From Candidatus Falkowbacteria bacterium (GTDB lineage Bacteria > Patescibacteriota > Patescibacteriia > Patescibacteriales > Patescibacteriaceae): 64,000 bases of DNA. Below the pieces are notes generated by a model. That model made no database searches, was not told where the DNA came from, and saw only the letters and a list, made by a program, of their open reading frames with translations. Positions 14,731-62,226 of this stretch are shown in pieces. The DNA is taken from positions 18,212-82,211 of the forward strand of contig CAIUCZ010000030.1 in NCBI GenBank assembly GCA_903897785.1, written 5' to 3'. A program made the position numbers and the translations under genes. Position 1 is the first letter of the stretch; each line of letters opens with the position of its first letter.

Positions 14731-14795
14731 AATCTGGAATTTAGAATTTGGAATTCGTATTTTCCAGATTCCAGATTCCAGATTCTAAATTCCAT
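14731..14795. repeat. C-family word hairpin (CTGGAAT / ATTCCAG)
   Basis: 14736-14754 pairs with 14775-14793 over 19 bp with one T:G position. It fills the whole ATPase-permease gap. Confidence 0.85.
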
Positions 14796-14797
14796 TT

Positions 14798-16057
14798 ATG
14801 ATGTCCCTCAATTATTACAAATCTCTAATCCTGGCGGCGTGGCGCGGCCTCCTAGCCAACAAACGCCGCAGTTTGCTGACCGCCTTGGGCGTGATTATCG
14901 GCGTGGCGGCCGTGGTGACGATTGTCGCCATCGGCAACGGGGCGCAAGCTTTGATTTTGTCCGAAGTGCAATCGTTCGGCTCCAATTTGATTGGCGTTTT
15001 GCCGGGCAAATCAGAAACCACCGGTCCGCCGGCGTCTGTGTTTGGCGTGACGATTACGACATTAACGACAGCCGATGCCGAAGCCATGGCCGACAAAAAA
15101 AATCTGCCGCACGTCAAATCGGTTGCGCCGTTTGCCCAAGGGGCCGGGACGCTCAACTGGCAAGGCGTCACGTATAGCACCAACCTGTCCGGCACCGGCG
15201 TCGATTATATTGCCACCGAAGGCGGCAATTTGGCGACCGGGCGTTGGTTCACGGCCGACGAAGACAGCGCGTTGGCGCGCGTGGTAATTTTGGGCGATAC
15301 GGCGCGGACACAGTTGTTTGGCAACAGCGATCCGCTGGGCCAGCAAATAAAAATCGGCAATGCTTTTTTTCAGGTGATCGGCACGATGCAAAAAAAAGGC
15401 AGTTCCGGCACGATGGATGTGGATGATCGCGTATTCTTGCCCGTTCAAACTATGCAAAAAATAATTTCCGGCACCAATTATCTGGGTTTGATTCATATGC
15501 AAGTCGATGACAGCAAAAATATCAACCAAACTATTACCGATTTAACAAACTTGTTGCGCGCTCGCCATAACATTACCGATCAATCCGGCAACAGCGATGA
15601 TTTTTCCGTGCGCAGCGGCGCTCAAGCGATTAGTATTTTAACGACGATTACCGACGCCTTGAAATATTTCTTGGCCGCCATGGCCGCTTTGTCGCTCTTG
15701 GTTGGCGGCATCGGCATTATGAATATCATGTTGATTCGCGTCACCGAACGCACCCGTGAAATCGGCTTGCGCAAAGCGGTCGGCGCGCGCTATCAAGACA
15801 TTTTGAGCCAATTTTTAACCGAAGCTACCGTCTTGACTTTGTCCGGCGGCGTCATCGGTATCATTGTCGGTATCGGCATGTCTTGGTTGGTGTCGGTGGT
15901 GGCGACTTACCTTGATTACACTTGGCCGTTGGTGATTTCAGCTTGGTCGATTGTCATTGCCGTAGCTGTTTCCACTTCCATCGGTTTAATTTTTGGTCTA
16001 TACCCGGCGCGCAAAGCCGCCAGATTGGATCCGATTGAAGCTTTACGTTATGAATAA
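14798..16057 (+). CDS. MacB-type ABC permease (FtsX domain + periplasmic domain)
   Basis: N-terminal TM helix, about 230-aa extracytoplasmic domain, then 3 C-terminal TM helices with GIGIMNIMLIRVTERTREIGLRKAVGA. Confidence 0.88.
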   Translation: MMSLNYYKSLILAAWRGLLANKRRSLLTALGVIIGVAAVVTIVAIGNGAQALILSEVQSFGSNLIGVLPGKSETTGPPASVFGVTITTLTTADAEAMADKKNLPHVKSVAPFAQGAGTLNWQGVTYSTNLSGTGVDYIATEGGNLATGRWFTADEDSALARVVILGDTARTQLFGNSDPLGQQIKIGNAFFQVIGTMQKKGSSGTMDVDDRVFLPVQTMQKIISGTNYLGLIHMQVDDSKNINQTITDLTNLLRARHNITDQSGNSDDFSVRSGAQAISILTTITDALKYFLAAMAALSLLVGGIGIMNIMLIRVTERTREIGLRKAVGARYQDILSQFLTEATVLTLSGGVIGIIVGIGMSWLVSVVATYLDYTWPLVISAWSIVIAVAVSTSIGLIFGLYPARKAARLDPIEALRYE

Positions 16058-17327
16058 ATTTTTTAAACCGATTTGGCATTATTTGCAAGGCTCGGTCCGC
16101 GCTCTGCGCGCCAACAAAACCAGAACGATGTTAACGATTCTGGGTATTGTGATCGGCATTGCCACGGTAATTATTGTTTATTCGGCCGGCGAGGGGACGA
16201 AGAGTTTGATCTTGAATCAAATCTCCAGCTTTGGTACGGATATTATTTCTATCCAAGTCAAAGTGCCTAACGGTTTGTCCGGTCAAGCCGGCCGTGCCAA
16301 ATCGGCAACGGCTCTGGCACAAGGCGTGCAGATCACCACCATGGGCTTGGGGGATCTGACGGCGATTAAAAAATTACCAAACGTTATCAACGCTTATGCC
16401 GCGGTCATCAATCAAGATCAAGTCAGTTATCAAAATCAACTGCGCCGCACTTTTTTGATGGGCACCAGCGCCAGCTATTTAGCAATCAATAAGACCCAAT
16501 TAGCGGAAGGTAATTGGTTTAGCGAGGATCAAGACCAAGGTTTTAACAATGTGGTGGTGCTTGGTTCGTCGATCGCTAATAAATTATTCGGCCAGGACGA
16601 TCCGTTGAATAAATACATCACCGTGCATCAACAGAAATTTTTGGTCATCGGCGTCTTAAAATCGGCCGGCGCCGTGGCGTTTATTAATTTTGATGATTTT
16701 TTATACGTGCCGGTGCGCACTTTGCAAAAAAAATTAATGGGCATCAATCATGTTTCGATGATGGTGGCCGAAGTGCAAACTATGGCCTTGGCTGATCAAA
16801 CCGCCGCCGATATCACGGCCACCTTGCGCGCGCGCCACAACATTGACGATCAGACCGGCGGCAAAGACGATTTTTCCGTGGTGACCATGGCCGAAGCCAT
16901 GAAAAATTTAGACACTATTACCAACGCCTTAACCTTTTTACTCTTGGGCATTGTCGCCATTTCTTTGGTGGTCGGCGGCGTCGGCATTATGAATATTATG
17001 TATGTCGCCGTCACCGAGCGCACGGCCGAGATCGGTTTGCGCAAAGCGGTCGGCGCCACTTATAGCGCCATTCTGACGCAATTTTTGGTGGAAGCGATTC
17101 TGATTACCGTTTTGGGTGGCATCATCGGCATTGCCGTCGGCATCGGCGTCTCATTTTTAATTTCTTTGGCCGCCCAGTGGTATGGCCTCGACTGGACTTT
17201 TGTTTTGCCGGCTCAAGGTTTTGCCGTGTCTTTGATTTTTTCTTTTGCCTGCGGCTTGGTCTTTGGCGTTTATCCGGCACGAACGGCGGCGCGGCTGGAC
17301 CCGGTGGAGGCATTGCGCAACGAATAA
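16050..17327 (+). CDS. second MacB-type ABC permease (paralogue)
   Basis: Same architecture, with GVGIMNIMYVAVTERTAEIGLRKAVGA. The ATG at 16050 overlaps the previous gene by 8 nt. Confidence 0.88.
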   Translation: MNKFFKPIWHYLQGSVRALRANKTRTMLTILGIVIGIATVIIVYSAGEGTKSLILNQISSFGTDIISIQVKVPNGLSGQAGRAKSATALAQGVQITTMGLGDLTAIKKLPNVINAYAAVINQDQVSYQNQLRRTFLMGTSASYLAINKTQLAEGNWFSEDQDQGFNNVVVLGSSIANKLFGQDDPLNKYITVHQQKFLVIGVLKSAGAVAFINFDDFLYVPVRTLQKKLMGINHVSMMVAEVQTMALADQTAADITATLRARHNIDDQTGGKDDFSVVTMAEAMKNLDTITNALTFLLLGIVAISLVVGGVGIMNIMYVAVTERTAEIGLRKAVGATYSAILTQFLVEAILITVLGGIIGIAVGIGVSFLISLAAQWYGLDWTFVLPAQGFAVSLIFSFACGLVFGVYPARTAARLDPVEALRNE

Positions 17328-17363
17328 AAAGCATAACGCATAGCATGGAACACGTAACACAGA

Positions 17364-17437
17364 GTTAAAAGTTGAAAGTTATAAAGTTCATAAAGTCAAA
17401 ATTCACTTTATGGACTTTTAACTTTATGAACTTTATA
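17364..17437. repeat. D-family word hairpin (ATAAAGTT / AACTTTAT)
   Basis: gttaaaagttgaaagttataaagttcataaagt / actttatggacttttaactttatgaactttata. Confidence 0.85.
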
Positions 17438-17510
17438 GCTCACGTATCATGTTGCGCATTTTCTTGTTTTCCGCTATAATAATACTAACTTTAAGCTATA
17501 ATTTTTTGTT

Positions 17511-19532
17511 ATGTTTAAGCGCAAAAGACATCATCCGGCTCATCGCCCTAATTTTTTGTTACTCTACGCCGAGCAAATGGAACGCCGGTTGCTGGCCGAA
17601 TTGGGCGGCCTCAAAAAACGGCGGCGCAAAATTTGGCATTTTTACGTCCAATACGGCGCCTTTGTGCTGGCAATTATTTTAGTTTTAACGATTGTCGCGG
17701 CCGGATTATGTTTTGCTCCGTTAAAACAAGTTTATAGCGAAGCGCAGCTCGGCAAATGGTATTTACAGCAAGCCGAGGCCTTTGAACAAAATAAAAATCT
17801 GGCCGTGGCCTTAGCCAATGCTCAGCAAGCCCAAGCCTCTTTAACCAAAGCCCAACAGGATTTTACCGCTCAAGTTGACGGCAAACTGCATTATTTTTTA
17901 ATTTTCAATCCGCTCCTCTCCGAAGTGCGCCATGCCTTGACCGCCTCGAACTTGACCAGCCAGGCAATCACGGCCGGTCTGCAATTAAAAACCGCCTTTG
18001 CTTCAGTTATGCCGGAAGCGCCGGCGACCTTTGCCCGTTATTCTAAAACGCAAAAAACCGAAGTCTTGTCAAAAATCTATGCGGCCGAAACTTCACTGGA
18101 GCAAATCGACAGCGAATTAAAAAGCGCCCAAGCGGAATTGGCGCAAATCAAACTTTTGCCCTGGCTGATCACCGGCAACAGCGCCTTGCTGGAATTGTCC
18201 GGCGCGATTACCGCCAGTCAAAACCGTCTGGCCGGCATTCGACCGCTGGCGCAGGCTTTGCCCAAGCTTCTGGGCTATCCGCAAGCGGCTAACTATCTGG
18301 TTTTTTTTCAAAATAACAACGAGCTGCGCCCGACCGGCGGCTTTTTGGGCAGTTATGGTATTTTGACCGTGCAAAACGGCGAGATTACCGCTTTTAAGAC
18401 TGATGACGTTAATAATCTTGATCGTTTTTCTGTGGGCAAATTGCAGGTAGCTTCGCCGGTGCCGCTAGCCAAATATATCGGCCAACCGAATTTGTTTTTA
18501 CGCGATGCCAACTGGTCGCCTGATTGGCCGACCACGGCTCAAACTTTGGCTTGGTTTTATAATCAAGAAAATAAGAACTTGCCAACACCGCACGCGGAGC
18601 AAAATTTTGTCGGTGTCATCGGCATCACGCCAAATCTGATTAATGACTTTTTGACTTTAACCGGACCGATCAAAGTCGGGACCGACACTTATGATAAGAA
18701 TAATTTTACTTCATTGCTGGAATATAATGTCGAGGTGAATTACAAACAACAAGGTCTGGCCAGGCCTTTGCGCAAAGAAGTGATCGGCCAAGTGGCGCAA
18801 GGTTTGGAACAAAAGATTTTTGCTTTGTCCGCCGCCAATTGGCAGCAGTTGATTTATAAAATAGCGGATAACATCGTTAAGAAAAATATTTTGGTCTATT
18901 TGACTGATCCGCAAATGCAAGTCTTGACCGCCAACACGCTTAATTGGTCGGGCGAAGTCAAAGCTACCGGCGGCGATTATTTCTTGGTGGATGATGCCAA
19001 CTTGGGCGCGCTAAAAACCGACGCTGTAATGAATCGGCGCATCAATTATACTTTGCGCCACACCAAAGACGGGTTGATTGCCGAGTTGCAAGTGGACTAT
19101 GCCAACAGCGGCAAGATTGCCGATTGGCAAACCACGACCTATAAAGACTATGTGCGGGTTTACGTGCCGCAAGGCAGTCAACTGCTGGGCTCGGCCGGCT
19201 GGACGCAAGATAAGACGGCGGTCAGTACTGATTTAGGCAAAACGGTATTTACCGGCTATTTAACGGTTGGATTGGGCCAAATCGTTCATTTGGACCTGCA
19301 ATACAAGCTGCCGGACAGCCTGACCAACGCCATGGTCGCCAATAATCAGTATAGTTTAATCGCCCAGCGCCAGCCTGGCTCCCGCCTCAATTACTTGCAA
19401 ATCGACCTGGCATTTGCTAAACCGATAAAATCATATCAACCTGCCAGTTTATACACTCAGCTGGTCAATGCTCAGGAGGTGCGTTGGACCAGCGACTTTA
19501 GTAATGACAAAAACTACCAAGTACAGTTTTAA
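17511..19532 (+). CDS. DUF4012-like envelope protein
   Basis: N-terminal TM helix and the motif NNELRPTGGFLGSYG, which I associate with DUF4012. 673 aa. Confidence 0.7.
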   Translation: MFKRKRHHPAHRPNFLLLYAEQMERRLLAELGGLKKRRRKIWHFYVQYGAFVLAIILVLTIVAAGLCFAPLKQVYSEAQLGKWYLQQAEAFEQNKNLAVALANAQQAQASLTKAQQDFTAQVDGKLHYFLIFNPLLSEVRHALTASNLTSQAITAGLQLKTAFASVMPEAPATFARYSKTQKTEVLSKIYAAETSLEQIDSELKSAQAELAQIKLLPWLITGNSALLELSGAITASQNRLAGIRPLAQALPKLLGYPQAANYLVFFQNNNELRPTGGFLGSYGILTVQNGEITAFKTDDVNNLDRFSVGKLQVASPVPLAKYIGQPNLFLRDANWSPDWPTTAQTLAWFYNQENKNLPTPHAEQNFVGVIGITPNLINDFLTLTGPIKVGTDTYDKNNFTSLLEYNVEVNYKQQGLARPLRKEVIGQVAQGLEQKIFALSAANWQQLIYKIADNIVKKNILVYLTDPQMQVLTANTLNWSGEVKATGGDYFLVDDANLGALKTDAVMNRRINYTLRHTKDGLIAELQVDYANSGKIADWQTTTYKDYVRVYVPQGSQLLGSAGWTQDKTAVSTDLGKTVFTGYLTVGLGQIVHLDLQYKLPDSLTNAMVANNQYSLIAQRQPGSRLNYLQIDLAFAKPIKSYQPASLYTQLVNAQEVRWTSDFSNDKNYQVQF

Positions 19533-19541
19533 ACACCTCTT

Positions 19542-20549: not shown

Positions 20550-20552
20550 AAA

Positions 20553-20644
20553 TTAATTAACGCACGAAACTACGAATTTTATGCGAATACCGCAAATTAC
20601 ATAGCGAAAGCCACGAATTCGAATTCGCATTTTTCGCATTAATG
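20553..20644. mobile_element. B-family element, reverse-oriented partial copy
   Basis: tacgaattttatgcgaataccgcaaattacatagcgaaagccacgaattcgaattcgcatttttcgcattaatg. This is the reverse complement of the right half of 10055-10175 plus a short terminal arm. Confidence 0.8.
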
Positions 20645-20649
20645 AAAAT

Positions 20650-21906: not shown

Positions 21907-21909
21907 AAA

Positions 21910-21999
21910 TTACTACAAATACAAATTATTACAAATATACAAATTTCAATCCTCGTTGCGTGCGGATTTAGATATTTGTAATAATTTGTATTTGTAGTA
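21910..21999. repeat. E-family word hairpin (TACAAATA / TATTTGTA)
   Basis: ctacaaatacaaattattacaaatat / atatttgtaataatttgtatttgtag; about 26-bp near-perfect arms. Confidence 0.85.
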
Positions 22000-22946: not shown

Positions 22947-22980
22947 ACCCCCAAAGCTACGGCGATGGGGGTCTTTTTAT
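22947..22980 (+). terminator. intrinsic terminator
   Basis: accccc aaagctacggcgat gggggt followed by cttttta. Confidence 0.65.
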
Positions 22981-22981: not shown

Positions 22982-23156
22982 CTACAAATACAAATTATTA
23001 TCACCGCTTGTCGCGGGATTCCGCCCTCAATTAACAATATAAGTGGCGGAACAAATTTACAAATATCGTTCTCGCAGGTTTTATTTGTAAATTTGCCTGT
23101 CCGCCGTAGCTTTAGCGAAGTTCGAGCGGAGGCGGATGATAATTTGTATTTGTAGG
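22982..23156. repeat. E-family arms enclosing a mosaic of other hairpins
   Basis: ctacaaatacaaattatta (22982-23000) ... taataatttgtatttgtag (23138-23156). The interior holds ggattccgcc/ggcggaac, acaaatttacaaata/tatttgtaaatttg, and ccgccgtagctttagcgaag..cggaggcgg. Confidence 0.8.
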
Positions 23157-25272: not shown

Positions 25273-25354
25273 GTTCTTAAAGTTTATAAAGTTACAAAGT
25301 TCATAAAGTGTCGCGCTTTATAACTTTAAGAATTTTATATCTTTTAACTTTAAC
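25273..25354. repeat. D-family word hairpin
   Basis: gttcttaaagtttataaagttacaaagttcataaagtg / ctttataactttaagaa...cttttaactttaac. Confidence 0.8.
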
Positions 25355-26421: not shown

Positions 26422-26482
26422 CTTAAGTTATAAAGTTCATAAAGTTGAAAGTTCTTAAAGTGATAATTTTTTCAACTTTTAA
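26422..26482. repeat. D-family word hairpin
   Basis: cttaagttataaagttcataaagttgaaagttcttaaagtg ... ttcaacttttaac. Confidence 0.75.
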
Positions 26483-28191: not shown

Positions 28192-28355
28192 CGCGCAAAA
28201 CTACGAATTATACGCGAATACCGCAAATTACATAGCGAAAAATGCGAATGAAACGCCGAAGGTCTAATCCTTAACAAACAATATTAGAGAATTCGCATTT
28301 TTTGCGGTTTCAATCCGTGGTATTTGCATGTTAATTCGCATTTTTTGCATTAATT
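28192..28355. mobile_element. B-family element, reverse orientation, with 40-nt central insert
   Basis: Reverse complement of the 10055/61023 element. It is interrupted exactly at the central GAATTC|GAATTC by gaaacgccgaaggtctaatccttaacaaacaatattagag (28250-28289). Confidence 0.8.
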
Positions 28356-28365: not shown

Positions 28366-29850
28366 ATGTCAGAACCAGAAAAAGTTCGCCTCAGATTAGC
28401 TCCCAGCCCCACCGGCTTCTTGCACATCGGTAATTTACGCACCGCTTTGTTTGGTTATTTGTTGGCAAAGTCTATGCATGGTGAATTTATCTTGCGCATT
28501 GAAGACACGGATGAAAAAAGAGAAGTCGAGGGTGCGGTCGACAGTCTGCTTAATGTTTTAACTTGGCTGGGCATTAATTTTGACGAAGGCCCGCATCTGG
28601 GCGGGGATTACGGCCCTTATATACAAACCCGGCGCCTGGATATTTATCAAAAAGAAATCCAAACGCTACTCGACAACCGTAAAGCCTACCGTTGTTTTTG
28701 CACGCCGGAACGTTTGACCGAGATGCGCGAAGAACAACAAAAAAATAAACAAGCGCCGCGTTATGATCGCCATTGCCGCAATCTGTCTGAAGATGAAGCG
28801 CAAGCCAAAATTAAGGCCGGCGAAAGTTTTGTTATTCGCCAAGCCATGCCGCTCGATGGTGTGGTGGAGGTTTATGATGAATTACGCGGGGCTATCAAAT
28901 TTCAAGCCGAAGACCTGGATGATCATGTCTTGATTAAAGCCAACGGCGTGCCGACTTATCAATTTGCCAGCGTCGTCGATGACCATTTGATGGAAATTTC
29001 TCATGTCACGCGCGGCGAAGAATGGCTGCCGTCTTTTCCGAAGAATATTTTATTGTATCAAGCTTTTGGCTGGATACTGCCCAAATTTATTCATCTGCCG
29101 TTGATCCTTAATAAAACCGGGGGCAAGCTGTCAAAACGCCAAGGCGATGTGTTTGTCGAAGACTATAAAACTAAAGGCTATCTGTCGGAAGCTTTAATTA
29201 ATTTTTGTGCTTTTTTAGGCTGGCATGGTAAAACCGATCAGGAAATTTTTAGCCTGGAAGAATTGGAAAAAGAATTTTCAATCGCCGGCATGGGCGCCAG
29301 TCCGGCCGTGTTTGATTTGGAGAAACTAAATTATTTGAACGGTTATTATATTCGCCAAATGTCGCCAGAGAATTTAGTTGACTTGGTTAAGCCATACCTA
29401 ACAGAGGCTATTGCCACCGCACCTTTCAATATTAGTGATGAATATTTAACCAAGATTATCAGTCTTGAACAAGAACGGCTAAAAGTTTTAGGCGAAATCA
29501 CGCAGGCGACTGCTTATTTCTTTGTTGACCAGTCGGAATACGAAGCACAGCTCTTGGTCTGGAAAAAATCAGACGCTGAAAAAACAAAAACTAATTTGCA
29601 AACTTTAGCTGATTACCTGGCGGTTTATTCTGGTGATTGGACCAAAGAAAATTTAGAAAGCTCTATTAAGCAATTAATCGCCGATCAGGGCGGTCAAGTC
29701 GGCGATTATCTTTGGCCGATGCGTGTCGCTTTGACCGGCCGCCAGTTTTCACCCGGACCGTTTGAAGTGGCGGCTGTCTTGGGGAAAGAAATAACTTTAA
29801 AAAGAATTAAAGGTGCAATTAATATTTTGAATCTGGAATCTGGAAGCTAG
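28366..29850 (+). CDS. gltX: glutamate--tRNA ligase
   Basis: RLAPSPTGFLHIGNLRTAL (HIGH) and KLSKRQG (KMSKS). The last residues NLESGS are encoded by the C-family repeat. Confidence 0.95.
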   Translation: MSEPEKVRLRLAPSPTGFLHIGNLRTALFGYLLAKSMHGEFILRIEDTDEKREVEGAVDSLLNVLTWLGINFDEGPHLGGDYGPYIQTRRLDIYQKEIQTLLDNRKAYRCFCTPERLTEMREEQQKNKQAPRYDRHCRNLSEDEAQAKIKAGESFVIRQAMPLDGVVEVYDELRGAIKFQAEDLDDHVLIKANGVPTYQFASVVDDHLMEISHVTRGEEWLPSFPKNILLYQAFGWILPKFIHLPLILNKTGGKLSKRQGDVFVEDYKTKGYLSEALINFCAFLGWHGKTDQEIFSLEELEKEFSIAGMGASPAVFDLEKLNYLNGYYIRQMSPENLVDLVKPYLTEAIATAPFNISDEYLTKIISLEQERLKVLGEITQATAYFFVDQSEYEAQLLVWKKSDAEKTKTNLQTLADYLAVYSGDWTKENLESSIKQLIADQGGQVGDYLWPMRVALTGRQFSPGPFEVAAVLGKEITLKRIKGAINILNLESGS

Positions 29851-29912
29851 AAGCTGGAATAATTTAAATTTTTTTCTTTCATTCCAGCTTCCAGATTCTA
29901 GCTTCTAGCTTC
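29829..29912. repeat. C-family word hairpin
   Basis: atctggaatctggaagctagaagctggaat / attccagcttccagattctagcttctagcttc. The left arm contains the gltX stop codon. Confidence 0.85.
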
Positions 29913-31181: not shown

Positions 31182-31709
31182 ACAAGACAAAGAACAAAAA
31201 GAGGAGACTGCCCAAGCGCGGATCACTTTTGATTTTGTTTATTATCGCTTGCAAACAAGCTGTAAATATAGTGTCGCACAATATAACTTATGCGACACAT
31301 ACTTAAATAAGTAAGCAGTCGATGCGTGGCATTGGTTGGTAGAAATTTTTAAATTAAATTCTACCCCCTACCAACGACAAACTATCTTATTACCAATCCG
31401 ATAAAATTTATTTGCGGATAAAATAATAATAAAATTTTTAGAATCAGCAAAAAGATGCCGATGACAGTCAGGCAAAAAACCAAGACTGCCACAAAAAAGA
31501 ATGCTTTAAAGGCTGTTTCCATAGATTAGCTAGTGGGTTGTAGTTTGGCGCTCGTAGTCGAACATCCACTACTCCCCGTTTAAACTTAAATTTCAATGTG
31601 TCGTAAAATATAGCTGGTAGCTTTTTAGTTAATTGGCTTATTAGGCGAGCACAAATTATTTTTGTTCTCCTGATGAGCTGATCCGCCATCTGGCAGAGCT
31701 ACCGCCTTG

Positions 31710-32736: not shown

Positions 32737-32768
32737 GTAGTCGTTAGTCGTTAGTTGTTAGTCGTTAG
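32737..32768. repeat. F-family word repeat (AGTCGTTAG), single arm
   Basis: gtagtcgttagtcgttagttgttagtcgttag. Matches the reverse complement of the right arm at 53872-53895. Confidence 0.75.
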
Positions 32769-34131: not shown

Positions 34132-34268
34132 ATTTGCGATAAATTTAATACGAATGTTACGAATTGTATCCGAATACTACGAATTGATTACGAATGTCGT
34201 GAATTTTATATTCGCATTTTTCGCGGTGCCATTCGCAGTATTCGCATACAATTCGTAGATTCGCATTA
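34132..34268. mobile_element. B-family-like CGAAT-word hairpin, degenerate copy
   Basis: aatacgaatgttacgaattgtatccgaatactacgaattgattacgaatg / attcgcatttttcgcggtgccattcgcagtattcgcatacaattcgtagattcgcatt. Confidence 0.7.
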
Positions 34269-34690: not shown

Positions 34691-34773
34691 GTTAAAAGTT
34701 CATAAAGTTATAAAGTTATAAAGTCATGGATTCGTAGAACTTTCAACTTTATAACTTTATGAACTTTATAAAC
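34691..34773. repeat. D-family word hairpin
   Basis: gttaaaagttcataaagttataaagttataaagt / actttcaactttataactttatgaactttataaac. Confidence 0.85.
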
Positions 34774-36847: not shown

Positions 36848-36921
36848 AGTTTTGTTTATAAAAAAATAATTTATGAACAGATAATACTCTAGAACGATAA
36901 ATTTAGCAAGCCTCTGATTTT

Positions 36922-36996
36922 GTCATCCCGAGGAACGAGGAATCTCTAAAACCATAAGCCGGAGGTGTAAGAGATTCCTCGCAAGCTCGGGATGAC
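36922..36996. repeat. A-family hairpin repeat
   Basis: gtcatcccgaggaacgaggaatctct / agagattcctcgcaagctcgggatgac. Confidence 0.85.
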
Positions 36997-37454: not shown

Positions 37455-37538
37455 GTTCATAAAGTTATAAAGTTATAAAGTTATAAAGCGCGAAACTTTA
37501 TGAACTTTACGAACTTTATAACTTTCAACTTTATAAAC
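37455..37538. repeat. D-family word hairpin
   Basis: gttcataaagttataaagttataaagttataaagcg / cgaaactttatgaactttacgaactttataactttcaactttataaac. Confidence 0.85.
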
Positions 37539-38230: not shown

Positions 38231-38268
38231 AGATTGGAATCTGGAATTTAGATTTTAGATCTGAAAAT
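38231..38268. repeat. C-family word segment
   Basis: agattggaatctggaatttagattttagatctgaaaatt. Confidence 0.6.
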
Positions 38269-39374: not shown

Positions 39375-39380
39375 AAACTA

Positions 39381-39457
39381 GGCGGTAGGCCGTAGGCGGT
39401 GGGCCGGTAGATTATTAGATGATTTTCTAACGACCTACTGCCTACTGCCTACCAGCC
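39381..39457. repeat. word hairpin (GGCGGTAGG / CCTACTGCC)
   Basis: ggcggtaggccgtaggcggtgggccggtag / cctactgcctactgcctaccagcc. Confidence 0.75.
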
Positions 39458-39461
39458 TAAT

Positions 39462-41067: not shown

Positions 41068-41496
41068 TTAGGCTTCCAGCGCCCGTAATCTCAATTCATG
41101 ATTCTGCACAATTTTCTTAACTTTAACCACATCGTCATTAACCGCCACCACATCTTCACTCTCAACTTGCCTTAAACCGGCCAATTGTTTTTCCATATTG
41201 CTTAACCGCCGGTCGGTTTTGTCGCCATTTTCAATCAGGCGATAAATTAAAGTCTCATGCTCGTCTAGGCGATCGTTTATCCCTGCTACTTCTTGTTTTA
41301 TCCCCGTTACTTCTTGTTTTATCCCTGTTACTTCCTGTTTTATCCCCGTTACTTCTTGTTTTAAATCATCAATCCGCTGATTAGTTTCATCGGACATGGT
41401 TTGCATCATGGGAAACAAAATCTCATCGCTAAATTTTAATAAAGTAGCGACCAGTTCTTCTTGGGTGATGGGTTTTTGTTCGTTATTGTTTTCCAT
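41068..41496 (-). CDS. coiled-coil protein with four tandem heptads IKQEVTG
   Basis: 142 aa; DLKQEVTGIKQEVTGIKQEVTGIKQEVAGIN. TATAAT lies 7 nt upstream of the ATG, so the mRNA may be leaderless. Confidence 0.6.
   Translation of the reverse strand: MENNNEQKPITQEELVATLLKFSDEILFPMMQTMSDETNQRIDDLKQEVTGIKQEVTGIKQEVTGIKQEVAGINDRLDEHETLIYRLIENGDKTDRRLSNMEKQLAGLRQVESEDVVAVNDDVVKVKKIVQNHELRLRALEA
41276..41359. repeat. 4 x 21-bp tandem repeat inside the CDS
   Basis: Units tttatccc(t/c)g(c/t)tacttc(t/c)tgt at 41276, 41297, 41318 and 41339. Confidence 0.9.
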
Positions 41497-45382: not shown

Positions 45383-45461
45383 GTCATCCCGGCGTATGCC
45401 GGGATCCAGTTTCATCTGCTTCGTTCGTGAATTTCTGGATACTGGCATACGCCGGTATGAC
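45383..45461. repeat. A-family hairpin repeat
   Basis: gtcatcccggcgtatgccgggatccag / ctggatactggcatacgccggtatgac. Confidence 0.85.
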
Positions 45462-48999: not shown

Positions 49000-49194
49000 T
49001 CAACCGTTGTTGGGCTTGCTTTGTTCGATTCGCTCCCAGATGCCGACTGCTTTCAAGCCGACCAAGGCGATAAAGATGACTATGCCGAACGGACCGAACA
49101 GCATAAAAAACAACCAAGCAAAAAAAATAATCACGGCGACAATGCCTAAAAGCTTTCGCCAATTGCCTGTAATTCGACTCAATTGAAATCTCAT
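49000..49194 (-). CDS. small hypothetical membrane protein
   Basis: 64 aa with two hydrophobic helices. Confidence 0.4.
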   Translation of the reverse strand: MRFQLSRITGNWRKLLGIVAVIIFFAWLFFMLFGPFGIVIFIALVGLKAVGIWERIEQSKPNNG

Positions 49195-49386
49195 TTTAAA
49201 AATCCTTTCTTACAAAGAACAACAAATCTGCTATTTTTATGGTAACAAAAAGGTTTATTTTTAGCAAATTTCCAGGCAAAATCGTGCCATTGACAAGATT
49301 ATAAATTTCTGCTATCCTTAGAGCTAAGTAAATTAATTTAGAAAAATCGTCGAGCTTCACAAATTTTTTTCTTTGCCTCGCCATAG

Positions 49387-49429
49387 CTCCATCGGAGCGA
49401 AGGCGGGCTTCGTCCGCCGATGAGGCGGA
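49387..49429. repeat. J-family small hairpins in the csp 5' leader region
   Basis: ctccatcggag, cgaaggcgggcttcg, tccgccgatgaggcgga. Confidence 0.6.
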
Positions 49430-49454
49430 AACTTATTAAATTAGCTTCAAAACA

Positions 49455-49652
49455 ATGAACGGTGTTATCAAAAAAAAGACTGACAAGGGTTTTGGTTTCA
49501 TTACCCCGGAAGGTCAAACTACCGATTTATTCTTTCACAGCAACAACTTGGTTGGCATCACTTTTGACCAACTTCAAGAAGGTGACCGTGTTACTTTTGA
49601 AAGCGAACAATCCCCGAAGGGTTTGAACGCGGTCAATGTGCAAAAAGCGTAA
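49455..49652 (+). CDS. cspA: cold shock protein (CspA family)
   Basis: KGFGFITPEG (RNP1) and LFFH (RNP2); 65 aa. Confidence 0.93.
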   Translation: MNGVIKKKTDKGFGFITPEGQTTDLFFHSNNLVGITFDQLQEGDRVTFESEQSPKGLNAVNVQKA

Positions 49653-49676
49653 AGACGCAAAATCTTGCGTCTCTAC
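49653..49676 (+). terminator. H-family hairpin acting as the csp terminator
   Basis: agacgcaaaatcttgcgtct followed by ctacatttt. Confidence 0.55.
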
Positions 49677-49693
49677 ATTTTGTAGAATAAACC

Positions 49694-49731
49694 AAAAACT
49701 CCCCCGATGAAAATCGAGGGAGTTTTTGTTT
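49694..49731. terminator. bidirectional intrinsic terminator
   Basis: aaaaactccc ccgatgaaaatcga gggagttttt. Confidence 0.65.
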
Positions 49732-49791
49732 TAAAACGCCGCCCCGGCAAAACGTCGGGACGGCGAGGCAGAATTATTTTTTATTACAAAA

Positions 49792-49819
49792 GTAGAGACG
49801 CATCGCCATGCGTCTCTAC
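49792..49819 (-). terminator. H-family hairpin acting as terminator of the rpsI-ending operon
   Basis: gtagagacgcatcgccatgcgtctctac, with a T-run (ttttgtaataaaaaa) following on the minus strand. Confidence 0.6.
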
Positions 49820-49863
49820 GCGTAATATTTTATTGCGACAATCAGACATCCGAAATCCGATAT

Positions 49864-51944: not shown

Positions 51945-52077
51945 TTTGGAATCTGGAAGCTGGAATCTGGAATCTGGAGCCTGCCTGCCGGCAGGCGGGT
52001 TTTAATTCTCCAAATTCTAAATTCCAAATTCCAAATTCTTGTTTGTATATTTGTAATAATTTGTATTTGTAGTAATT
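51945..52077. repeat. C-family word hairpin (51945-52039) plus E-family single arm (52040-52077)
   Basis: tggaatctggaagctggaatctggaatctggag cctgcctgccggcaggcggg ...ctccaaattctaaattccaaattccaaattc, then tgtttgtatatttgtaataatttgtatttgtagtaat. Confidence 0.85.
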
Positions 52078-53270: not shown

Positions 53271-53343
53271 ATTCGGAATTTGGAATTTGGAATTTAGAAT
53301 TTGGATTTTATCTCCAGATTCCAGATTCCAGATTCTAAATTCT
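53271..53343. repeat. C-family word hairpin
   Basis: attcggaatttggaatttggaatttagaatttggat / atctccagattccagattccagattctaaattc. Confidence 0.85.
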
Positions 53344-53384: not shown

Positions 53385-53409
53385 GACTTGTGACTAACGA
53401 CTAGTGACT
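53385..53409. repeat. F-family word segment
   Basis: gacttgtgactaacgactagtgact. Confidence 0.55.
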
Positions 53410-53804: not shown

Positions 53805-53830
53805 ACTAGTTAAAAATTAAAAGTTATAAA

Positions 53831-53895
53831 GTCGTTAGTCATTAGTCGTTAGTCAAGAATAAAAAATTAAAGACTAACAACTAACGACTAACGAC
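53831..53895. repeat. F-family word hairpin (AGTCGTTAG / CTAACGACT)
   Basis: gtcgttagtcattagtcgttagtc / gactaacaactaacgactaacgac; about 21 of 24 positions pair. Confidence 0.85.
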
Positions 53896-53899
53896 TATT

Positions 53900-54013
53900 T
53901 TATCCTTGTCTCTGTTTATGTTTTGGATTTTTACAAATAACACACACCCGGCCTTTGCGGCGGATAGTCTCACAATCTTTACAAATTTTTTTCACTGAAG
54001 CTCTGACTTTCAT
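53900..54013 (-). CDS. rpmJ: 50S ribosomal protein L36 (37 aa, below the ORF-track cutoff)
   Basis: Hand translation: [37 protein letters not shown]. Confidence 0.93.
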
Positions 54014-54021
54014 AATAAATA

Positions 54022-54085
54022 AGTCGTTAGTCGTTAGTCACAAGTCGTCAGTCAATTTTGACTTCCGGCTAACGACTTGCGACTT
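54022..54085. repeat. F-family word hairpin (imperfect)
   Basis: agtcgttagtcgttagtcacaagtcgtcagtc ... ggctaacgacttgcgactt. Confidence 0.7.
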
Positions 54086-54097
54086 ATAACTTTAAAT

Positions 54098-54325
54098 CTA
54101 CATTCTATAAGTAATGCGTCCTTTGCCTAAATCGTAAGGACTTATTTGAATTTTAACGCGGTCACCAAAAGCCAGCCGGATCTTGTTCATCCGCATTTTG
54201 CCGGAGAGATGAGCCAATATTTCATGGCCGTTATCCAATTTTACTTTAAACGAGGCAGAAGGCAGGATTTCTTCAATCTGACCTATAACCTCTATAAATT
54301 CTTTGGAAGCTTCTTCGTGAGCCAT
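54098..54325 (-). CDS. infA: translation initiation factor IF-1
   Basis: S1-like fold: [49 protein letters not shown]. Confidence 0.95.
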
Positions 54326-55488: not shown

Positions 55489-55513
55489 AAAATTTAATTT
55501 GTTCAATTAAAAT

Positions 55514-56557: not shown

Positions 56558-56600
56558 CTGCCACAGTCCTCCGACTTGAAGTCGGAGAGACTACGGCAGG
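56558..56600. repeat. K-family hairpin
   Basis: ctgccacagtcctccgacttgaagtcggagagactacggcagg. Confidence 0.75.
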
Positions 56601-56626
56601 GCGGTGATTATTTTTGTGATTACTTT

Positions 56627-58435: not shown

Positions 58436-58490
58436 ATTTTTACAATTCTAATGAGTTTTCAGTATAATCGAGGTTAATTTTTTTAGCAAG

Positions 58491-59111
58491 CTAGCGGCCA
58501 GTATGTTTGCCAGCGGCTGCGGAAAATAACTTGATAATTCTTTTTTCCATCAAATCAACCAAAGCATAATAAGTCAACAGCCAAAAAATCATTTTTTGCG
58601 GTTGTTCCACAAACAAACCGGCGGCTGTACCGAAATTAAAGTTAAAATGCGCCGCACCCAAAGCCGGGATAGGCAGAATCGCCGCCGGCAAAGCGCAAGC
58701 CAATAATAACATCACCCGGGAAAAACCCAGCCAAATCGCAATTGTTATGGCTTGGTATTGATTGGTCTTGCGCGCGCTAAGCGCTCGGCCGATGATCGTC
58801 GCCAAAAAAATAAAAACTTGAGTCAATCCGCCATGCATCGCTACAAAAAATAAAAAAAATCCGTACAAAAGAAAAGCAAACAAAACTAAAAGTTTACTTC
58901 GAGACAAACTGACCAAGCCAAAACCGACCGAGGCGTGGCCAAACACAAACTCAAAGATAAAACACAGCATCATAAAACTGCCCAAATCGTGAAAGTCAAG
59001 ACTAACCACCAAGTTAGGCGCCAGCCAAATAGCCAAAAAAATCAAAGGCAGCAATAGGTCAGAAAAGAAAAACAGGCCGGCATCGCCGATGATCTGAAAA
59101 ACATCATCCAT
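58491..59111 (-). CDS. hypothetical polytopic membrane protein
   Basis: 206 aa with about 6 TM helices; no family recognised. Confidence 0.55.
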   Translation of the reverse strand: MDDVFQIIGDAGLFFFSDLLLPLIFLAIWLAPNLVVSLDFHDLGSFMMLCFIFEFVFGHASVGFGLVSLSRSKLLVLFAFLLYGFFLFFVAMHGGLTQVFIFLATIIGRALSARKTNQYQAITIAIWLGFSRVMLLLACALPAAILPIPALGAAHFNFNFGTAAGLFVEQPQKMIFWLLTYYALVDLMEKRIIKLFSAAAGKHTGR

Positions 59112-59209
59112 GGGTTTATTTTTAAAATTTATGACTATATCCTACCAAGTTTAAAGCTTTTGCGCAACTTGAAAAATCAACCAAAGCAATGTAGTATAAA
59201 AACTACCAA

Positions 59210-59228
59210 CCCCGCCTCATCGGCGGGC
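59210..59228. repeat. J-family small hairpin
   Basis: ccccgcctcatcggcgggc. Confidence 0.55.
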
Positions 59229-59254
59229 AAGCTACCATCCTACCCGCCTAGCCT

Positions 59255-60646
59255 ATGTCCGACAACAAGTCCGAGCTAAAACTGCCGCCACAAAACATTG
59301 AAGCCGAAATTTCCATTTTAGGTTGTTTATTGATCGATAAAGATGCCATCATTAAAATTGCCGACACCCTGCAGCCGGAAGATTTTTACAAAGACAGCCA
59401 CGGCCGGATTTATGAAGTGATCAAAGAGCTGTTCGCCAATCACGAACCGATTGATGTCTTGACTTTGACTTCGCGTCTGGAAGAAAAAGAATTACTGGCG
59501 CAAGTCGGCGGCCGGGCTTATATCACCGAACTGGCCTCTGCCGTCGCCTCTGCGGCTAATGTCGGCACTTACGCCGCCATGGTGCAAAAAAAAGCGACCC
59601 TGCGCCGCTTGATCAACGCCGCTACGGAAATCACGGAAATGGGCTATGACGAAGAAGAAGCGATTGACAAAGTCTTGGACTCATCCGAGCAAAAATTATT
59701 CGGCGTCTCACAAAAATATTTAAAACAAAATTTTACTTCCATCGCCAGCTTGTTAAACGAAGCCTTTGACCGCATCGACGATTTGCACAATCAAAGCGGC
59801 AAACTGCGCGGTATTTCCACCGGCTACCCCGATCTGGATAACTTGTTGGCCGGTTTGCAAAAATCTGACTTGATCATTCTGGCGGCTCGTCCGTCGGTCG
59901 GTAAAACTTCTTTGGCGATGGATTTGGCGCGGCAAGTGGCGGTCGTCGGCAAAGTGCCGGTTGGCGTCTTTTCTTTGGAAATGAGCAAAGAACAGTTGGT
60001 CGATCGCATGCTGTGCGCCCAGGCCGGCGTCAGTTTGTGGAAAATGCGCACCGGCAAATTATCCGATCAAGACGATGACGATGATTTTTCCCGCATCGGC
60101 CAAGCCATGGGCGCGCTGGCCGAAGCGCCAATTTATATCGATGACTCACCGGCCGCCAATGTCATGGAAATCCGCACCAAAGCCCGCCGCTTGCAAATGG
60201 AAAAAGGTTTGGGCTTGCTGGTGATCGACTACTTGCAGTTAATGGAAGGCCGCGGCAAATACAGCGACAACCGCGTGCAAGAAGTGTCGGAAATCTCTCG
60301 CGCCTTGAAAGGCATTGCTCGTGAATTGAACATTCCGGTCATCGCCCTGTCGCAGTTGTCTCGTGCCGTGGAGCAAACTCGTCCGGCTATTCCTCGGCTG
60401 GCGCACTTGCGCGAGTCCGGCTCCATTGAGCAAGATGCCGATATTGTTATGTTTTTGTACCGCAAAGCGGCTGACCGCGGCTACAACTTTGACGACCTGA
60501 CCGAAGAAGAAAAACATTCGGCCGAACTGCATATCGCCAAACACCGCAACGGCCCGATCGGCAAGATTGATTTGTTCTTTGATGAAAATACGGTCAGCTA
60601 TAAGAGCGTTCAGCGATATGATCGGGATGAACCGCCACAATTTTAG
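59255..60646 (+). CDS. dnaB: replicative DNA helicase
   Basis: PPQNIEAEISILGCLL, AARPSVGKTS (Walker A), LVIDYLQLM, ALSQLSRAVE, RESGSIEQDAD. Confidence 0.95.
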   Translation: MSDNKSELKLPPQNIEAEISILGCLLIDKDAIIKIADTLQPEDFYKDSHGRIYEVIKELFANHEPIDVLTLTSRLEEKELLAQVGGRAYITELASAVASAANVGTYAAMVQKKATLRRLINAATEITEMGYDEEEAIDKVLDSSEQKLFGVSQKYLKQNFTSIASLLNEAFDRIDDLHNQSGKLRGISTGYPDLDNLLAGLQKSDLIILAARPSVGKTSLAMDLARQVAVVGKVPVGVFSLEMSKEQLVDRMLCAQAGVSLWKMRTGKLSDQDDDDDFSRIGQAMGALAEAPIYIDDSPAANVMEIRTKARRLQMEKGLGLLVIDYLQLMEGRGKYSDNRVQEVSEISRALKGIARELNIPVIALSQLSRAVEQTRPAIPRLAHLRESGSIEQDADIVMFLYRKAADRGYNFDDLTEEEKHSAELHIAKHRNGPIGKIDLFFDENTVSYKSVQRYDRDEPPQF

Positions 60647-60678
60647 ACCTTGGATGTTGGATATTAGATATTGGATTT

Positions 60679-60720
60679 TTAACTTTATAAACCTTAAAAA
60701 CTTTATAACTTTTAACTTAT
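60679..60720. repeat. D-family word segment, single orientation
   Basis: ttaactttataaaccttaaaaactttataacttttaacttat. Confidence 0.65.
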
Positions 60721-60726
60721 AATTCT

Positions 60727-61017
60727 ATGTTCGAGAAACTTAAGCAATTGAAGGACCTGCGCTCTCAGGCCAAAACTATGCAATCGATGCTGGCTCAAGA
60801 AAAAATCACCGTGGATGAACACGGCATCAAGATTACCATGAACGGCAACATGGAAATTATCGAATTAATCATCGCCCCCGATGTGGCGCCGGAACGGATT
60901 GCCGGCTATGTCAAAGACTCGACCAACGAGATCATCAAAAAGACGCAAAAAGTTATGGCGCAAAAGATGCAAGAGATGGGCGGGCTGGGAGATCTTGGTG
61001 ATTTACTTAAAAAGTAA
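60727..61017 (+). CDS. ybaB: YbaB/EbfC family nucleoid-associated protein
   Basis: 96 aa; sits immediately upstream of recR, the conserved ybaB-recR pairing; QSMLAQEKITVDE...GNMEIIELII. Confidence 0.85.
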   Translation: MFEKLKQLKDLRSQAKTMQSMLAQEKITVDEHGIKITMNGNMEIIELIIAPDVAPERIAGYVKDSTNEIIKKTQKVMAQKMQEMGGLGDLGDLLKK

Positions 61018-61022
61018 ATTTC

Positions 61023-61155
61023 ATTAATGCAAAAAATGCGAATTAACATGCAAATACCACGAATGTAAACCGCAAAAAATGCGAATTCGAATTCGCGGTT
61101 TTCGTTATGTAATTTGCGGTATTCGCATGCAAATTCGCATTTTTCGCATTAATTA
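61023..61155. mobile_element. B-family element, forward copy, most complete
   Basis: attaatgcaaaaaatgcgaattaacatgcaaataccacgaatgtaaaccgcaaaaaatgcgaattcgaattcgcggttttcgttatgtaatttgcggtattcgcatgcaaattcgcatttttcgcattaat. Confidence 0.85.
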
Positions 61156-61162
61156 ATATTTT

Positions 61163-61756
61163 GTGTTTCCATCTCCAATCCAAAACTTAATCGACCAACT
61201 AACCCAACTCCCCTCTGTCGGCCCCAAGACTGCCGAGCGCTATGTCTTTTTTTTGTTGCGCCAAAAGCCGGAATTTTTATACGAGCTAACCAAAAGCATT
61301 GCTGAGCTGCCAAAAAGCATTGCCGAGTGCCAGCATTGCCACAATCTCGGTTTGGCCAATCCGTGTGCGATTTGCGCCGACAACCGGCGCGACGCTCGCC
61401 TGCTTTGCCTGGTGGCGCAACCGCAAGATATTGCCTATCTGGAAAACACTAAACAATATCTCGGGCTTTACTATGTCATCGGCGGTCCGCTTTCCCCAAC
61501 CGCCGGTTTGGGTCCGGAAGTTCTGGCCTTGAGTGGATTGCTGGCACGTCTGCAGACAAAACCGGTTGAGGAAATAATTTTAGCTTTCTCGCCCGACCTG
61601 CCCGGTGAAACCACGGCGCTGTACTTGATTAAAATTTTAAGTCAATTTAACGTCAAAATTAGTCGTTTGGCGCGCGGCCTGCCGAGTGGCGCCAGCTTGG
61701 AATACGCCGACGAAATGACACTGGGACAAGCGATCCAGAATAGAACAAGTTCATAA
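61163..61756 (+). CDS. recR: recombination protein RecR
   Basis: GTG start. LPSVGPKTAERYVFFLL (HhH), C4 zinc finger CQHCHN..CAICAD, and a Toprim domain. The stop codon lies in the D-family arm. Confidence 0.92.
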   Translation: MFPSPIQNLIDQLTQLPSVGPKTAERYVFFLLRQKPEFLYELTKSIAELPKSIAECQHCHNLGLANPCAICADNRRDARLLCLVAQPQDIAYLENTKQYLGLYYVIGGPLSPTAGLGPEVLALSGLLARLQTKPVEEIILAFSPDLPGETTALYLIKILSQFNVKISRLARGLPSGASLEYADEMTLGQAIQNRTSS

Positions 61757-61860
61757 AGTTATAAAGTTTATAAAGTTAAAAGTAAAAACGCCTCAAAAAT
61801 TGAGACGTTTTTTAGTAGCGACACTTTATGAACTTTATAACTTTAAAAACTTTTAACTTC
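61749..61860. repeat. D-family word hairpin spanning both convergent gene ends (recR and rplU)
   Basis: gttcataaagttataaagtttataaagttaaaagt ... actttatgaactttataactttaaaaacttttaactt, with an inner aaaacgcctca/tgagacgtttt hairpin. Confidence 0.85.
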
Positions 61861-62154
61861 TATCATAGTGTGAATCTGCCGATGGCCGACGTTTCTTTTG
61901 TAACGAGTTTTATTTTTAAATTTAATAACATGCACTTTGTCGCCTTGCGCCGTCACGCCAGCCTTGACTTCAACCACCTCGCCCAACGACGGCTGGCCGA
62001 TTTGCAAGTTGCCGCCATCTTCATCGGCAATCAACAAAGTTTCTAATTTAACCGTTTCACCCGCGGCCAATTCTAATTTTTCCACGGATAAAACTTGGCC
62101 TTCTTTGACCTTATACTGCTTACCGCCGGTTTTGATAATTGCAATCTTGTTCAT
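61843..62154 (-). CDS. rplU: 50S ribosomal protein L21
   Basis: MNKIAIIKTGGKQYKVKEGQVL ... KFKNKTRYKRNVGHRQ. The last 5 codons lie in the D-family arm. Confidence 0.93.
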   Translation of the reverse strand: MNKIAIIKTGGKQYKVKEGQVLSVEKLELAAGETVKLETLLIADEDGGNLQIGQPSLGEVVEVKAGVTAQGDKVHVIKFKNKTRYKRNVGHRQIHTMIEVKSF

Positions 62155-62157
62155 AAA

Positions 62158-62226
62158 ATGGAAGCTGGAATCCCTGCCCGCAATGCTACGCGCATAGCGT
62201 TGCAGGCGGGTGGAATTTGGAATTTA
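62158..62226. repeat. C-family word hairpin with GC-rich centre
   Basis: atggaagctggaat ccctgcccgcaatgctacgcgcatagcgttgcaggcggg tggaatttggaattt. Confidence 0.7.

Follow-up and report, generated by a model that had tools for sequence, protein, structure and literature searches.

Short tandemly repeated repetitive sequences (STRR sequences), 7-bp repeats that can fold into hairpins, are not uncommon among filamentous cyanobacteria, and for an STRR hairpin in the hupS-hupL gap, roles in transcript stability, translational coupling, or termination have been proposed (PMC2670836). A 2022 preprint still treats the role of the Nostoc heptamer repeats as open. In Xanthomonas, the heptamer GGGAATC is arrayed in convergent inverted pairs, 70 and 75 of them per genome; array length differs from species to species, either strand may be the transcribed one, and polymerase slippage has been put forward to explain the heptamer excess (Rehm et al. 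2015, PMC4692102). Direct repeats of TAACTGA occur in the Beggiatoaceae, cyanobacteria, and some Bacteroidetes (MacGregor 2015, PMC4679880). Here, arrays of this kind were analyzed in 64 kb of contig CAIUCZ010000030.1 from a Candidatus Falkowbacteria bacterium (the window), a gene-dense chromosomal stretch that is 84% coding and 16% non-coding by the ORF set used. The gaps between its genes carry hairpins whose arms are tandem short words (word hairpins), and these are an STRR-type repeat system in a new phylum. The architecture itself is already known: an initial impression that it had not been described was overturned by the STRR hairpins (PMC2670836), the Xanthomonas pairs (PMC4692102), and Nostoc punctiforme pNPUN01, in which the same detector found 5–6 word hairpins in 100 kb, located in intergenic gaps and built from the words CAGGAGT, GAGTAAT, AGGCAGG, and GGGTGTA. 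Literature searches found no reports of such repeats in the Candidate Phyla Radiation (CPR), Patescibacteria, or Peribacteria.

The original prediction was that at more than 20 sites the gap after a stop codon is largely occupied by an inverted repeat with word-periodic arms, in at least five word families. Arrays were detected with Tandem Repeats Finder (TRF), arms were sought by an inverted-repeat search of the window, and the RNA fold of each site was expressed as a z-score against 200 dinucleotide shuffles. TRF returned arrays of period 7–9 at the predicted sites, and inverted arms were recovered by the inverted-repeat search. Thirteen of the sites form long stems (z −4.5 to −11.4), and the element at 22982–23155 folds as strongly, so that 14 of the 21 listed sites are strong hairpins (starting at 14731, 17364, 21910, 22982, 25273, 29829, 34691, 37455, 39381, 51945, 53271, 53831, 54022, and 61749); no shuffle (0/200) folded equally well. 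The count of gap-filling hairpins therefore stood in part only. No significant fold was obtained at six of the 21 sites (26422, 32737, 38231, 52040, 53385, and 60679), which carry one-armed or weak arrays (z −1.1 to +0.2, dG 0 to −8), and at 62158–62226 the sole fold is that of an inserted 38-nt GC-rich palindrome, the flanking heptamer words having the same orientation and not being complementary.

Across the window, 26 inverted repeats with arms of at least 16 nt were observed, against 2.7 ± 1.5 in shuffles; for arms of at least 20 nt the figures are 20 observed and 0.38 expected, and for clearly periodic arms 10 and 0.17. Twenty of the 26 fall within the 16% of the window that is non-coding (P about 1e-11), and the words are likewise concentrated outside the ORFs of the window rather than being equally common inside genes. 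About half of the 25–400-nt gaps (21 of 41) are structured (z below −4). At least five word families are present, at 21 or more loci, as had been proposed. No tRNA and no Rfam family was found in the window. The hairpin word arrays are thus genuine and greatly exceed chance expectation. Although the contig was assembled from a metagenome, and palindromes and microsatellites are difficult to assemble, an artefact of a metagenome-assembled genome is extremely unlikely: more than 20 loci with different words fit precisely into gaps whose flanking conserved genes are intact and keep their stop and start codons, and the same architecture is found in a finished isolate replicon (pNPUN01) and in many independent assemblies.

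The repeat unit determined by TRF is 7 nt for the GGAATYT, AGTCGTT, and TAGGCRG families, with periods of 8–9 (17) for the AAAGTT family and 8/16 for TACAAAT(A). The AAAGTT(C)AT unit is really a 17-nt double word (9 + 8), and its 14-mer AAAGTTCATAAAGT occurs 15 times, with copies at all AAAGTT-family loci, against 0.04 expected. A recurrent 14-nt super-unit is also present in the GGAATYT family, and in the TACAAAT family up to 38 identical bases follow two different stop codons. The usual locus consists of an array of 3–6 words, a spacer, and the complementary array, giving an imperfect palindrome of 60–110 nt. Spacers are unique and 7–46 nt long, once 132 nt; in the GGAATYT and AAAGTT families the loops of different copies are unrelated, and word number, word order, and arm length vary. 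The claim that these are not simple dispersed copies therefore holds for loops and for the number and order of words; it does not hold for the 14-nt AAAGTT core or the up to 38 identical nucleotides of the TACAAAT family. Such shared cores of 14–38 nt point to common descent of family members, and judged by them the families are dispersed relatives rather than sequences with merely a common style. Each arm tends to consist of a single word variant, and this variant differs between the two arms of the same hairpin (at 53271 they are GGAATTT and rc-GGAATCT, and at 51945 the arrangement is reversed), which points to slippage or homogenization within arms. As originally noted, the arrays are not CRISPRs: their 7–9-nt words are contiguous, with no spacers between units, and no constant repeat alternates with unique spacers of similar length.

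Like the STRR sequences, the repeats of the window are tandem heptanucleotide words in several families per genome, dispersed over many intergenic loci and often placed near stop or start codons, and in both an array and its complement form a hairpin, as in the operon-internal hupS-hupL gap. The features that define the STRR architectural class, namely tandem words of at least three copies, dispersed intergenic families, and complementary-array hairpins, are all present. The two differ in phylum and in genome, that of the window being small and compact, unlike those of STRR-bearing cyanobacteria. The words of STRR1–3, reportedly listed by Mazel et al. in 1990 as CCCCA(A/G)T, TT(G/T)GTCA, and CAACAGT, differ from the words of the window, some families of which have 8–9-nt or 17-nt units. 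With host group and words both different, the window families are not members of cyanobacterial STRR1–3 in the strict sense. A cyanobacterial origin of the window was considered and rejected: the highly iterated palindrome HIP1 (GCGATCGC) occurs once only, and the relatives of its glutamyl-tRNA synthetase (GluRS) are Patescibacteria.

The Xanthomonas arrays are also intergenic, mostly of about 4 units, and about three quarters of them lie in convergent inverted pairs able to form stem-loops, as in the window; there, the repeat type is preserved between related species though its length varies. Per unit, GGGAATC and the GGAATCT array of the window differ in one base. The Xanthomonas repeats are a single G-rich family able to form G-quadruplexes, whereas the window has several unrelated families, and no tract of three G residues is found in GGAATYT, AGTCGTT, AAAGTTAT, or TACAAAT. 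The TAACTGA repeats resemble those of the window in being intergenic heptamer arrays (2–6 units) near start codons with a patchy phylogenetic distribution, and in carrying stop codons within the words, so that they overlap only slightly with ORF ends. They are nearly all direct (1 inverted among 170 sets) and predicted to be unstructured, whereas the window arrays are mostly inverted and hairpin-forming.

The window contains housekeeping genes (the dcw cluster, several aminoacyl-tRNA synthetases, dnaB, and ybaB-recR) and a ribosomal cluster, infA-rpmJ-rpsM-rpsK-rpsD-rpoA-rplQ-rplM-rpsI. Copies inside operons had been predicted and were found: hairpins lie in the infA/rpmJ, rpmJ/rpsM, rpsM/rpsK, rpsD/rpoA, ybaB/recR, and ABC ATPase/permease gaps, all within operons conserved across bacteria. 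Of 16 co-directional gaps, 9 have a stem that stops at most 13 nt short of the next start codon, and two gaps are filled by the stem to within 0–2 nt at both ends. This spacing leaves no room for a promoter, so that transcription would have to pass through the hairpin to reach the downstream genes, essential ones such as rpsK, rpoA, and rpmJ among them. None of the four divergent (promoter-only) gaps of the window contains an array.

The first word often holds the upstream stop codon (TAG-AATC, TAA-AGTT). Because a period of 7 or 8 nt shifts the frame and the words carry TAA or TAG, stops arise in all three frames, and by this argument, which has also been made for the TAACTGA repeats, the arrays are excluded from ORFs. 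Extension of an ORF is seen at the GluRS gene, where the array has overrun the ancestral stop and encodes a 6-residue tail, NLESGS, plus a stop codon (29829–29850); the tail is absent from nine relatives, which end before it. A Shine-Dalgarno (SD)-like 4-mer was found 4–20 nt upstream of the start in 5 of 59 called genes, starts being preceded by A/T-rich sequence, and accessibility rather than an SD sequence probably governs initiation in this organism.

Stable stem-loops downstream of stop codons also call to mind intrinsic terminators. The stems of the word hairpins are 20–35 bp and AU-rich (GC 0.18–0.46), with 0–4 T in the 8-nt tails and loops often longer than 8 nt, whereas canonical terminator sites in the same window have a stem GC of 0.63–0.78 and 5–6 T. 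A consensus terminator scan of the window called the canonical sites and none of the word hairpins. Canonical intrinsic termination was rejected on these grounds, in agreement with the original prediction. Non-canonical, U-tract-independent terminators or attenuators that partition operons and tune downstream genes are a separate proposal. It draws on the very stable stems right after stop codons, on the convergent gap at 61747–61859, where word arms enclose a canonical terminator, and on the termination role suggested for some cyanobacterial STRR hairpins (PMC2670836). We regard this as doubtful given the few G–C pairs, the lack of a U-tract, the result of the terminator scan, the position of stems directly upstream of essential cistrons, and the finding that gaps at the same position are unstructured in relatives.

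Relatives were identified through GluRS, the best non-self identity of which was 67% among 5.8 billion proteins; its relatives at 59–67% are labeled "Patescibacteria group bacterium" and "Candidatus Saccharimonadales." The genes around GluRS occur in the same order on three long contigs of Patescibacteria-group relatives (66–67% GluRS identity). No word hairpins were found in these three syntenic relatives (21 kb each), nor in four further relatives from a genome collection. The non-coding fraction is 8–11% in the syntenic relatives and 16% in the window, structured gaps number 13 of 47 and 21 of 41, respectively, and where the window has the GluRS hairpin, the orthologous gap of the syntenic relatives is unstructured. 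Absent from relatives, the word hairpins are lineage-specific additions rather than conserved regulatory structures.

The reading that we favor, and hold to be somewhat more probable than the alternatives taken together, is that these are STRR-type intergenic repeats with slippage-grown arms that form a transcribed, non-terminator intercistronic structure. Family seeds would spread to new gaps, after which each arm would grow, shrink, and homogenize by replication slippage. The arrays would persist solely outside ORFs but could overrun the 3′ end of a gene and supply a new stop codon. The loci would be transcribed in polycistronic mRNAs as 20–35-bp AU-rich stems lacking U-tracts, which would most likely act as a barrier to 3′–5′ decay or as a target for a double-strand RNase. 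At its base, the stem often brings the upstream stop codon together with a downstream start that lacks an SD, and ribosomes opening the stem could thereby couple translation of the two genes. The steps concerning origin draw directly on the sequences described above. Those concerning effect (read-through, decay protection, and coupling) are suggested by geometry and by analogy with REP-type stem-loops and translational coupling, the behavior of which is established; the repetitive extragenic palindromic (REP) sequences of Escherichia coli have an mRNA-stabilizing role.

Several observations weigh against this reading. A strand-specific signature had been expected from the T:G pair at 14736–14754, which was taken to mark plus-sense RNA, but the tally over the folds gave 41 G·U pairs in sense and 40 in antisense, so that neither a general rule nor an orientation is indicated. 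The sense strand is more stable in only 11 of 15 hairpins, and for the rpsM-rpsK hairpin the antisense fold is better by 11 kcal/mol, that in the mRNA sense being far weaker. The absence of strand bias in G·U pairs means that there is no positive sign of selection on an RNA fold. Compensatory change between arms had also been anticipated, yet pairing between the two arms of a locus is no stronger than pairing with partner arms taken from other loci of the family (GGAATYT, −1.10 versus −1.14 kcal/nt; AAAGTT, −0.73 versus −0.77 kcal/nt), and locus-specific compensatory evolution is accordingly not in evidence. Loops are long and variable, unlike those of optimized RNA hairpins; the six one-armed arrays imply that the hairpin is not obligatory; and relatives without the elements imply that any function is dispensable. 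Given that strand bias and arm covariation are missing, that loops vary, and that relatives lack the elements, most copies are possibly neutral or selfish, and much of the abundance of the repeats may be so rather than adaptive.

Symmetric palindromes with no strand bias in their mismatches are what a DNA-level feature predicts, and both replichores, lying on the two sides of the putative terminus, are rich in the elements. Cruciform extrusion, or binding of nucleoid, gyrase, or recombination proteins as proposed for some REP sequences and bacterial interspersed mosaic elements (BIMEs), nevertheless appears very improbable as their role. No candidate binding protein and no conserved loop or center was found, one-armed arrays coexist with the hairpins, relatives lack the arrays, and the absence from the four divergent gaps fits a transcribed 3′ or intercistronic placement better.

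The most serious rival, and one compatible with the reading favored above, is mobility of the type known for REPINs (inverted REP doublets) and MITEs (miniature inverted-repeat transposable elements). The word hairpins would then be non-autonomous elements copied by a REP-associated tyrosine transposase (RAYT)/IS200-type or TA-targeting transposase encoded elsewhere, with periodicity arising secondarily from slippage. REP, REPIN, and BIME sequences share with the window elements an extragenic, dispersed, and partly operon-internal distribution, inverted doublets around a spacer that fold in single-stranded DNA or mRNA, and singlet remnants. The solo arm at 52040–52077 resembles REP singlets, which have been read as decayed REPINs (PMC3116915). 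Long identical cores (AAAGTTCATAAAGT at every AAAGTT locus and 38 nt in the TACAAAT family) and the absence of the elements from syntenic relatives are also in keeping with mobility, and the 22982–23155 element looks like a 132-nt cargo flanked by 21-nt terminal inverted repeats.

Two further families occur in the same window, one truly REPIN-like and one of roughly 140-nt palindromic elements, and both had been missed in the original inventory of word families, which was incomplete to that extent. The REPIN-like unit (GTCATCCCGG family) is roughly 25 nt, GTCATyCCsGCGTATGCsGGrATC, and itself a small palindrome, and its doublets are inverted (z −7.5 to −12.5). At 12001–12068 (+ strand), two inverted copies of GTCATTCCCGCGTATGCGGGAATC form a doublet with 25/25 arms and a z-score of −12.5. 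Related copies were found by alignment at 2526–2593, 3798–3875, 36900–36970, and 45383–45461, with partial copies at 835–965 and 62240–62275; several copies lie inside the mraY-ftsW-murG cluster. The second family comprises palindromic elements of roughly 110–150 nt with GCGAAT-type words every 10–11 nt. The 137-nt element at 61020–61156 (+ strand, z −7.4), in the ybaB/recR gap, aligns with copies at 10054–10163, 20560–20645, 28200–28350, and 34142–34262, five in all.

The word hairpins differ from REPINs in that their arms are tandem words, not small palindromes, and the length of a copy is not fixed: solo arms of word hairpins have a dG of 0, and palindromic arms are seen only in the GTCATCCCGG family. 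MITE features are limited to inverted ends and the internal cargo at 22982–23155, with no consistent target-site duplication, the TA...TA ends being implied by the palindrome, and no insertion sequence in the window. Neither a transposase, RAYT, or Y1 transposase nor an integrase was found among its ORFs. Unrelated loops in the GGAATYT and AAAGTT families, together with variable arm length and word order, indicate that the copied unit is not a fixed element. Mobility as the explanation is considered possible but unlikely.

Among the individual GGAATYT-family loci, the hairpin at 14728–14793 (+ strand, dG −33.8, z −9.1) lies between genes for an ABC ATPase (13990–14730) and an FtsX permease (14798–16057). 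Its stem begins in the stop codon, the TAG with which the first word opens, and stops 10 nt short of the ATG. The pairing of 14736–14754 with 14775–14793 that had been worked out by hand (19 bp with one T:G) is correct, and the minimum-free-energy register is shifted by one word. At 29829–29912 (+ strand, z −5.0), the words are GGAATYT and GGAAGCT, and the final 22 nt of GluRS are overlapped by the left arm. The hairpin in the rpsD/rpoA gap, as assigned by Pfam (51945–52039, − strand, z −8.0), ends 9 nt before the rpoA ATG and has a GC-rich hairpin (51979–52003) nested in its loop. That in the rpsM/rpsK gap (53271–53343, − strand) ends 8 nt before the rpsK ATG; its left arm is all GGAATTT and its right arm all rc-GGAATCT, and for this reason it is stronger in antisense (z −7.4, dG −36.4) than in sense (z −4.6, dG −25). 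Degenerate GGAATYT words at 38231–38268 (− strand) form no hairpin (z −0.35). The words at 62158–62226 (− strand) lie in one orientation and are split by the 38-nt palindrome, which accounts for the whole fold (z −3.4) and is a nested insertion. GC-rich CCTGCC..GGCAGG palindromes are nested in or between word arrays at 51979–52003, 62170–62210, and 23092–23135 and are reminiscent of small elements inserting into heptamer repeats.

In the AAAGTT(C)AT family, the hairpin at 17364–17440 (+ strand, dG −26.1, z −7.3) follows the second permease gene and carries the AAAGTTCATAAAGT core on both arms, and that at 25273–25354 (+ strand, z −4.5) ends 4 nt before the next ATG. The copy at 34691–34773 (− strand, z −9.5) has perfect 23-nt arms, and the one at 37455–37538 (− strand, z −8.1) fills an 86-nt gap, leaving 1 nt on the stop-codon side and 1 nt on the start-codon side. 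The array at 26422–26482 (+ strand, z −1.1) is essentially one-armed, with 31 of 200 shuffles folding as well. In the convergent recR/rplU gap (61747–61859, no strand assigned, z −9.05), AAAGTT-family arms surround a terminator-like hairpin that has A/T runs on both sides, and the stop codons of both genes lie within the arms.

The TACAAAT-family hairpin at 21911–21999 (+ strand, z −9.1) has 28/28 complementary arms and starts 4 nt after the stop codon. The MITE-like element at 22982–23155 (+ strand), preceded by a canonical terminator at about 22950–22975, has 21-nt inverted ends that enclose 132 nt with further hairpins. The solo arm at 52040–52077 (− strand) stands directly after the rpsD stop codon, has no fold, and shares about 38 identical nt with the left arm at 21907–21944. 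AGTCGTT hairpins are found between rpmJ (53900–54013) and rpsM (53830–53896, − strand, z −11.4) and between infA (54098–54325) and rpmJ (54019–54087, − strand, z −7.4), the latter stem ending 5 nt before the rpmJ ATG. A one-armed AGTCGTT array of 4.4 copies (TRF) lies between SerRS and ftsQ-like genes (32737–32768, − strand, dG 0), and a short AGTCRTT-like one-armed array (TRF) follows the rpsM stop codon (53385–53409, − strand, dG −4.5). The TAGGCRG hairpin (39375–39461, − strand, z −7.9) fills the gap between two polysaccharide-synthesis genes, and the base of its stem pairs the stop-codon region with the start-codon region (distances d1 = 0, d2 = 2). In the dnaB/ybaB gap (60650–60722, + strand), TRF detected two adjacent direct arrays, TTGGATA (×3.9) and AACTTTAT (×5.9), with no complementary arm (z −0.13).

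Other features of the window were recorded. A 28-bp near-perfect palindrome of 11-6-11 architecture (GTGTCGCACAA TATAAC TTATGCGACAC) at 31271–31298 lies in the convergent gap 31182–31709. Because gene orientation flips from + to − and the cumulative GC skew peaks in the same gap, it is a candidate dif site and replication terminus on sequence grounds; at this position, syntenic relatives have an XerC/D-like integrase gene, which the window lacks. A 21-nt tandem repeat (4.2 copies, 91% identity) at 41276–41363 lies inside ORF 41068–41496, which has no Pfam hit, and implies a 7-residue protein repeat. Two long stretches contain no ORF above about 95 aa, 7241–8646 and 49150–49863, the second of which carries paired GCGTCTCTAC palindromes and terminator-like hairpins (49647–49821).

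The architecture was also found elsewhere. A contig assigned to "uncultured Candidatus Peribacteria," a distant CPR lineage (L017), carries it with the words GGGGATT, TGAGAAT, and GGTAAGGTAC, in arrays flush with the stop codon; the word GGGGATT at 2929–3016 of this contig is also the heptamer of the GGGGA(T/C)T repeats known from Nostoc PCC 7120. Exact arrays of three GGAATYT words were found in over 120 JGI metagenome contigs (32–66% GC), and 29 of 80 examined metagenome loci with GGAATYT arrays have periodic-arm hairpins, some with several word families. A tblastn search with all window proteins found no close relatives among the GGAATYT contigs, the best match being a 47% identical ABC ATPase in L131 (Ga0137366_10008498, 66% GC). 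In L131, a GGAATCT hairpin with perfect 26-nt arms (1705–1816) lies between two FtsX permease genes of an HlyD-ABC-FtsX operon homologous to 12137–17327 of the window, whose own GGAATCT hairpin sits at a different junction; the presence of GGAATCT hairpins in both operons may be a coincidence. Scans of viral contigs for two words gave only scattered matches, giant-virus metagenome-assembled genomes among them.

Words thus recur across distant hosts, GGAATCT in the window and in metagenome contigs and GGGAATC in Xanthomonas, with GGGGATT in both Nostoc and the Peribacteria contig. It is conceivable, though we think it improbable, that hairpin heptamer arrays are one pan-bacterial, self-propagating intergenic class, spread by a widely conserved mechanism and co-opted for stop–start coupling in SD-poor genomes.

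For annotation, word-hairpin loci should not be labeled terminators or CRISPRs, and it should be borne in mind that word arrays can lengthen ORFs at their 3′ ends. A small genome of Patescibacteria type and a Peribacteria contig both have the full architecture, with several word families, inverted arrays, and operon-internal positions. Its presence in both and absence from syntenic relatives imply that it needs no cyanobacteria-specific factors and can be gained quickly. In such a compact genome almost every structured gap can be enumerated, and relatives without the elements provide a contrast set. Should the pan-bacterial class be real, translational coupling would be enforced in SD-poor genomes without a ribosome-binding site.

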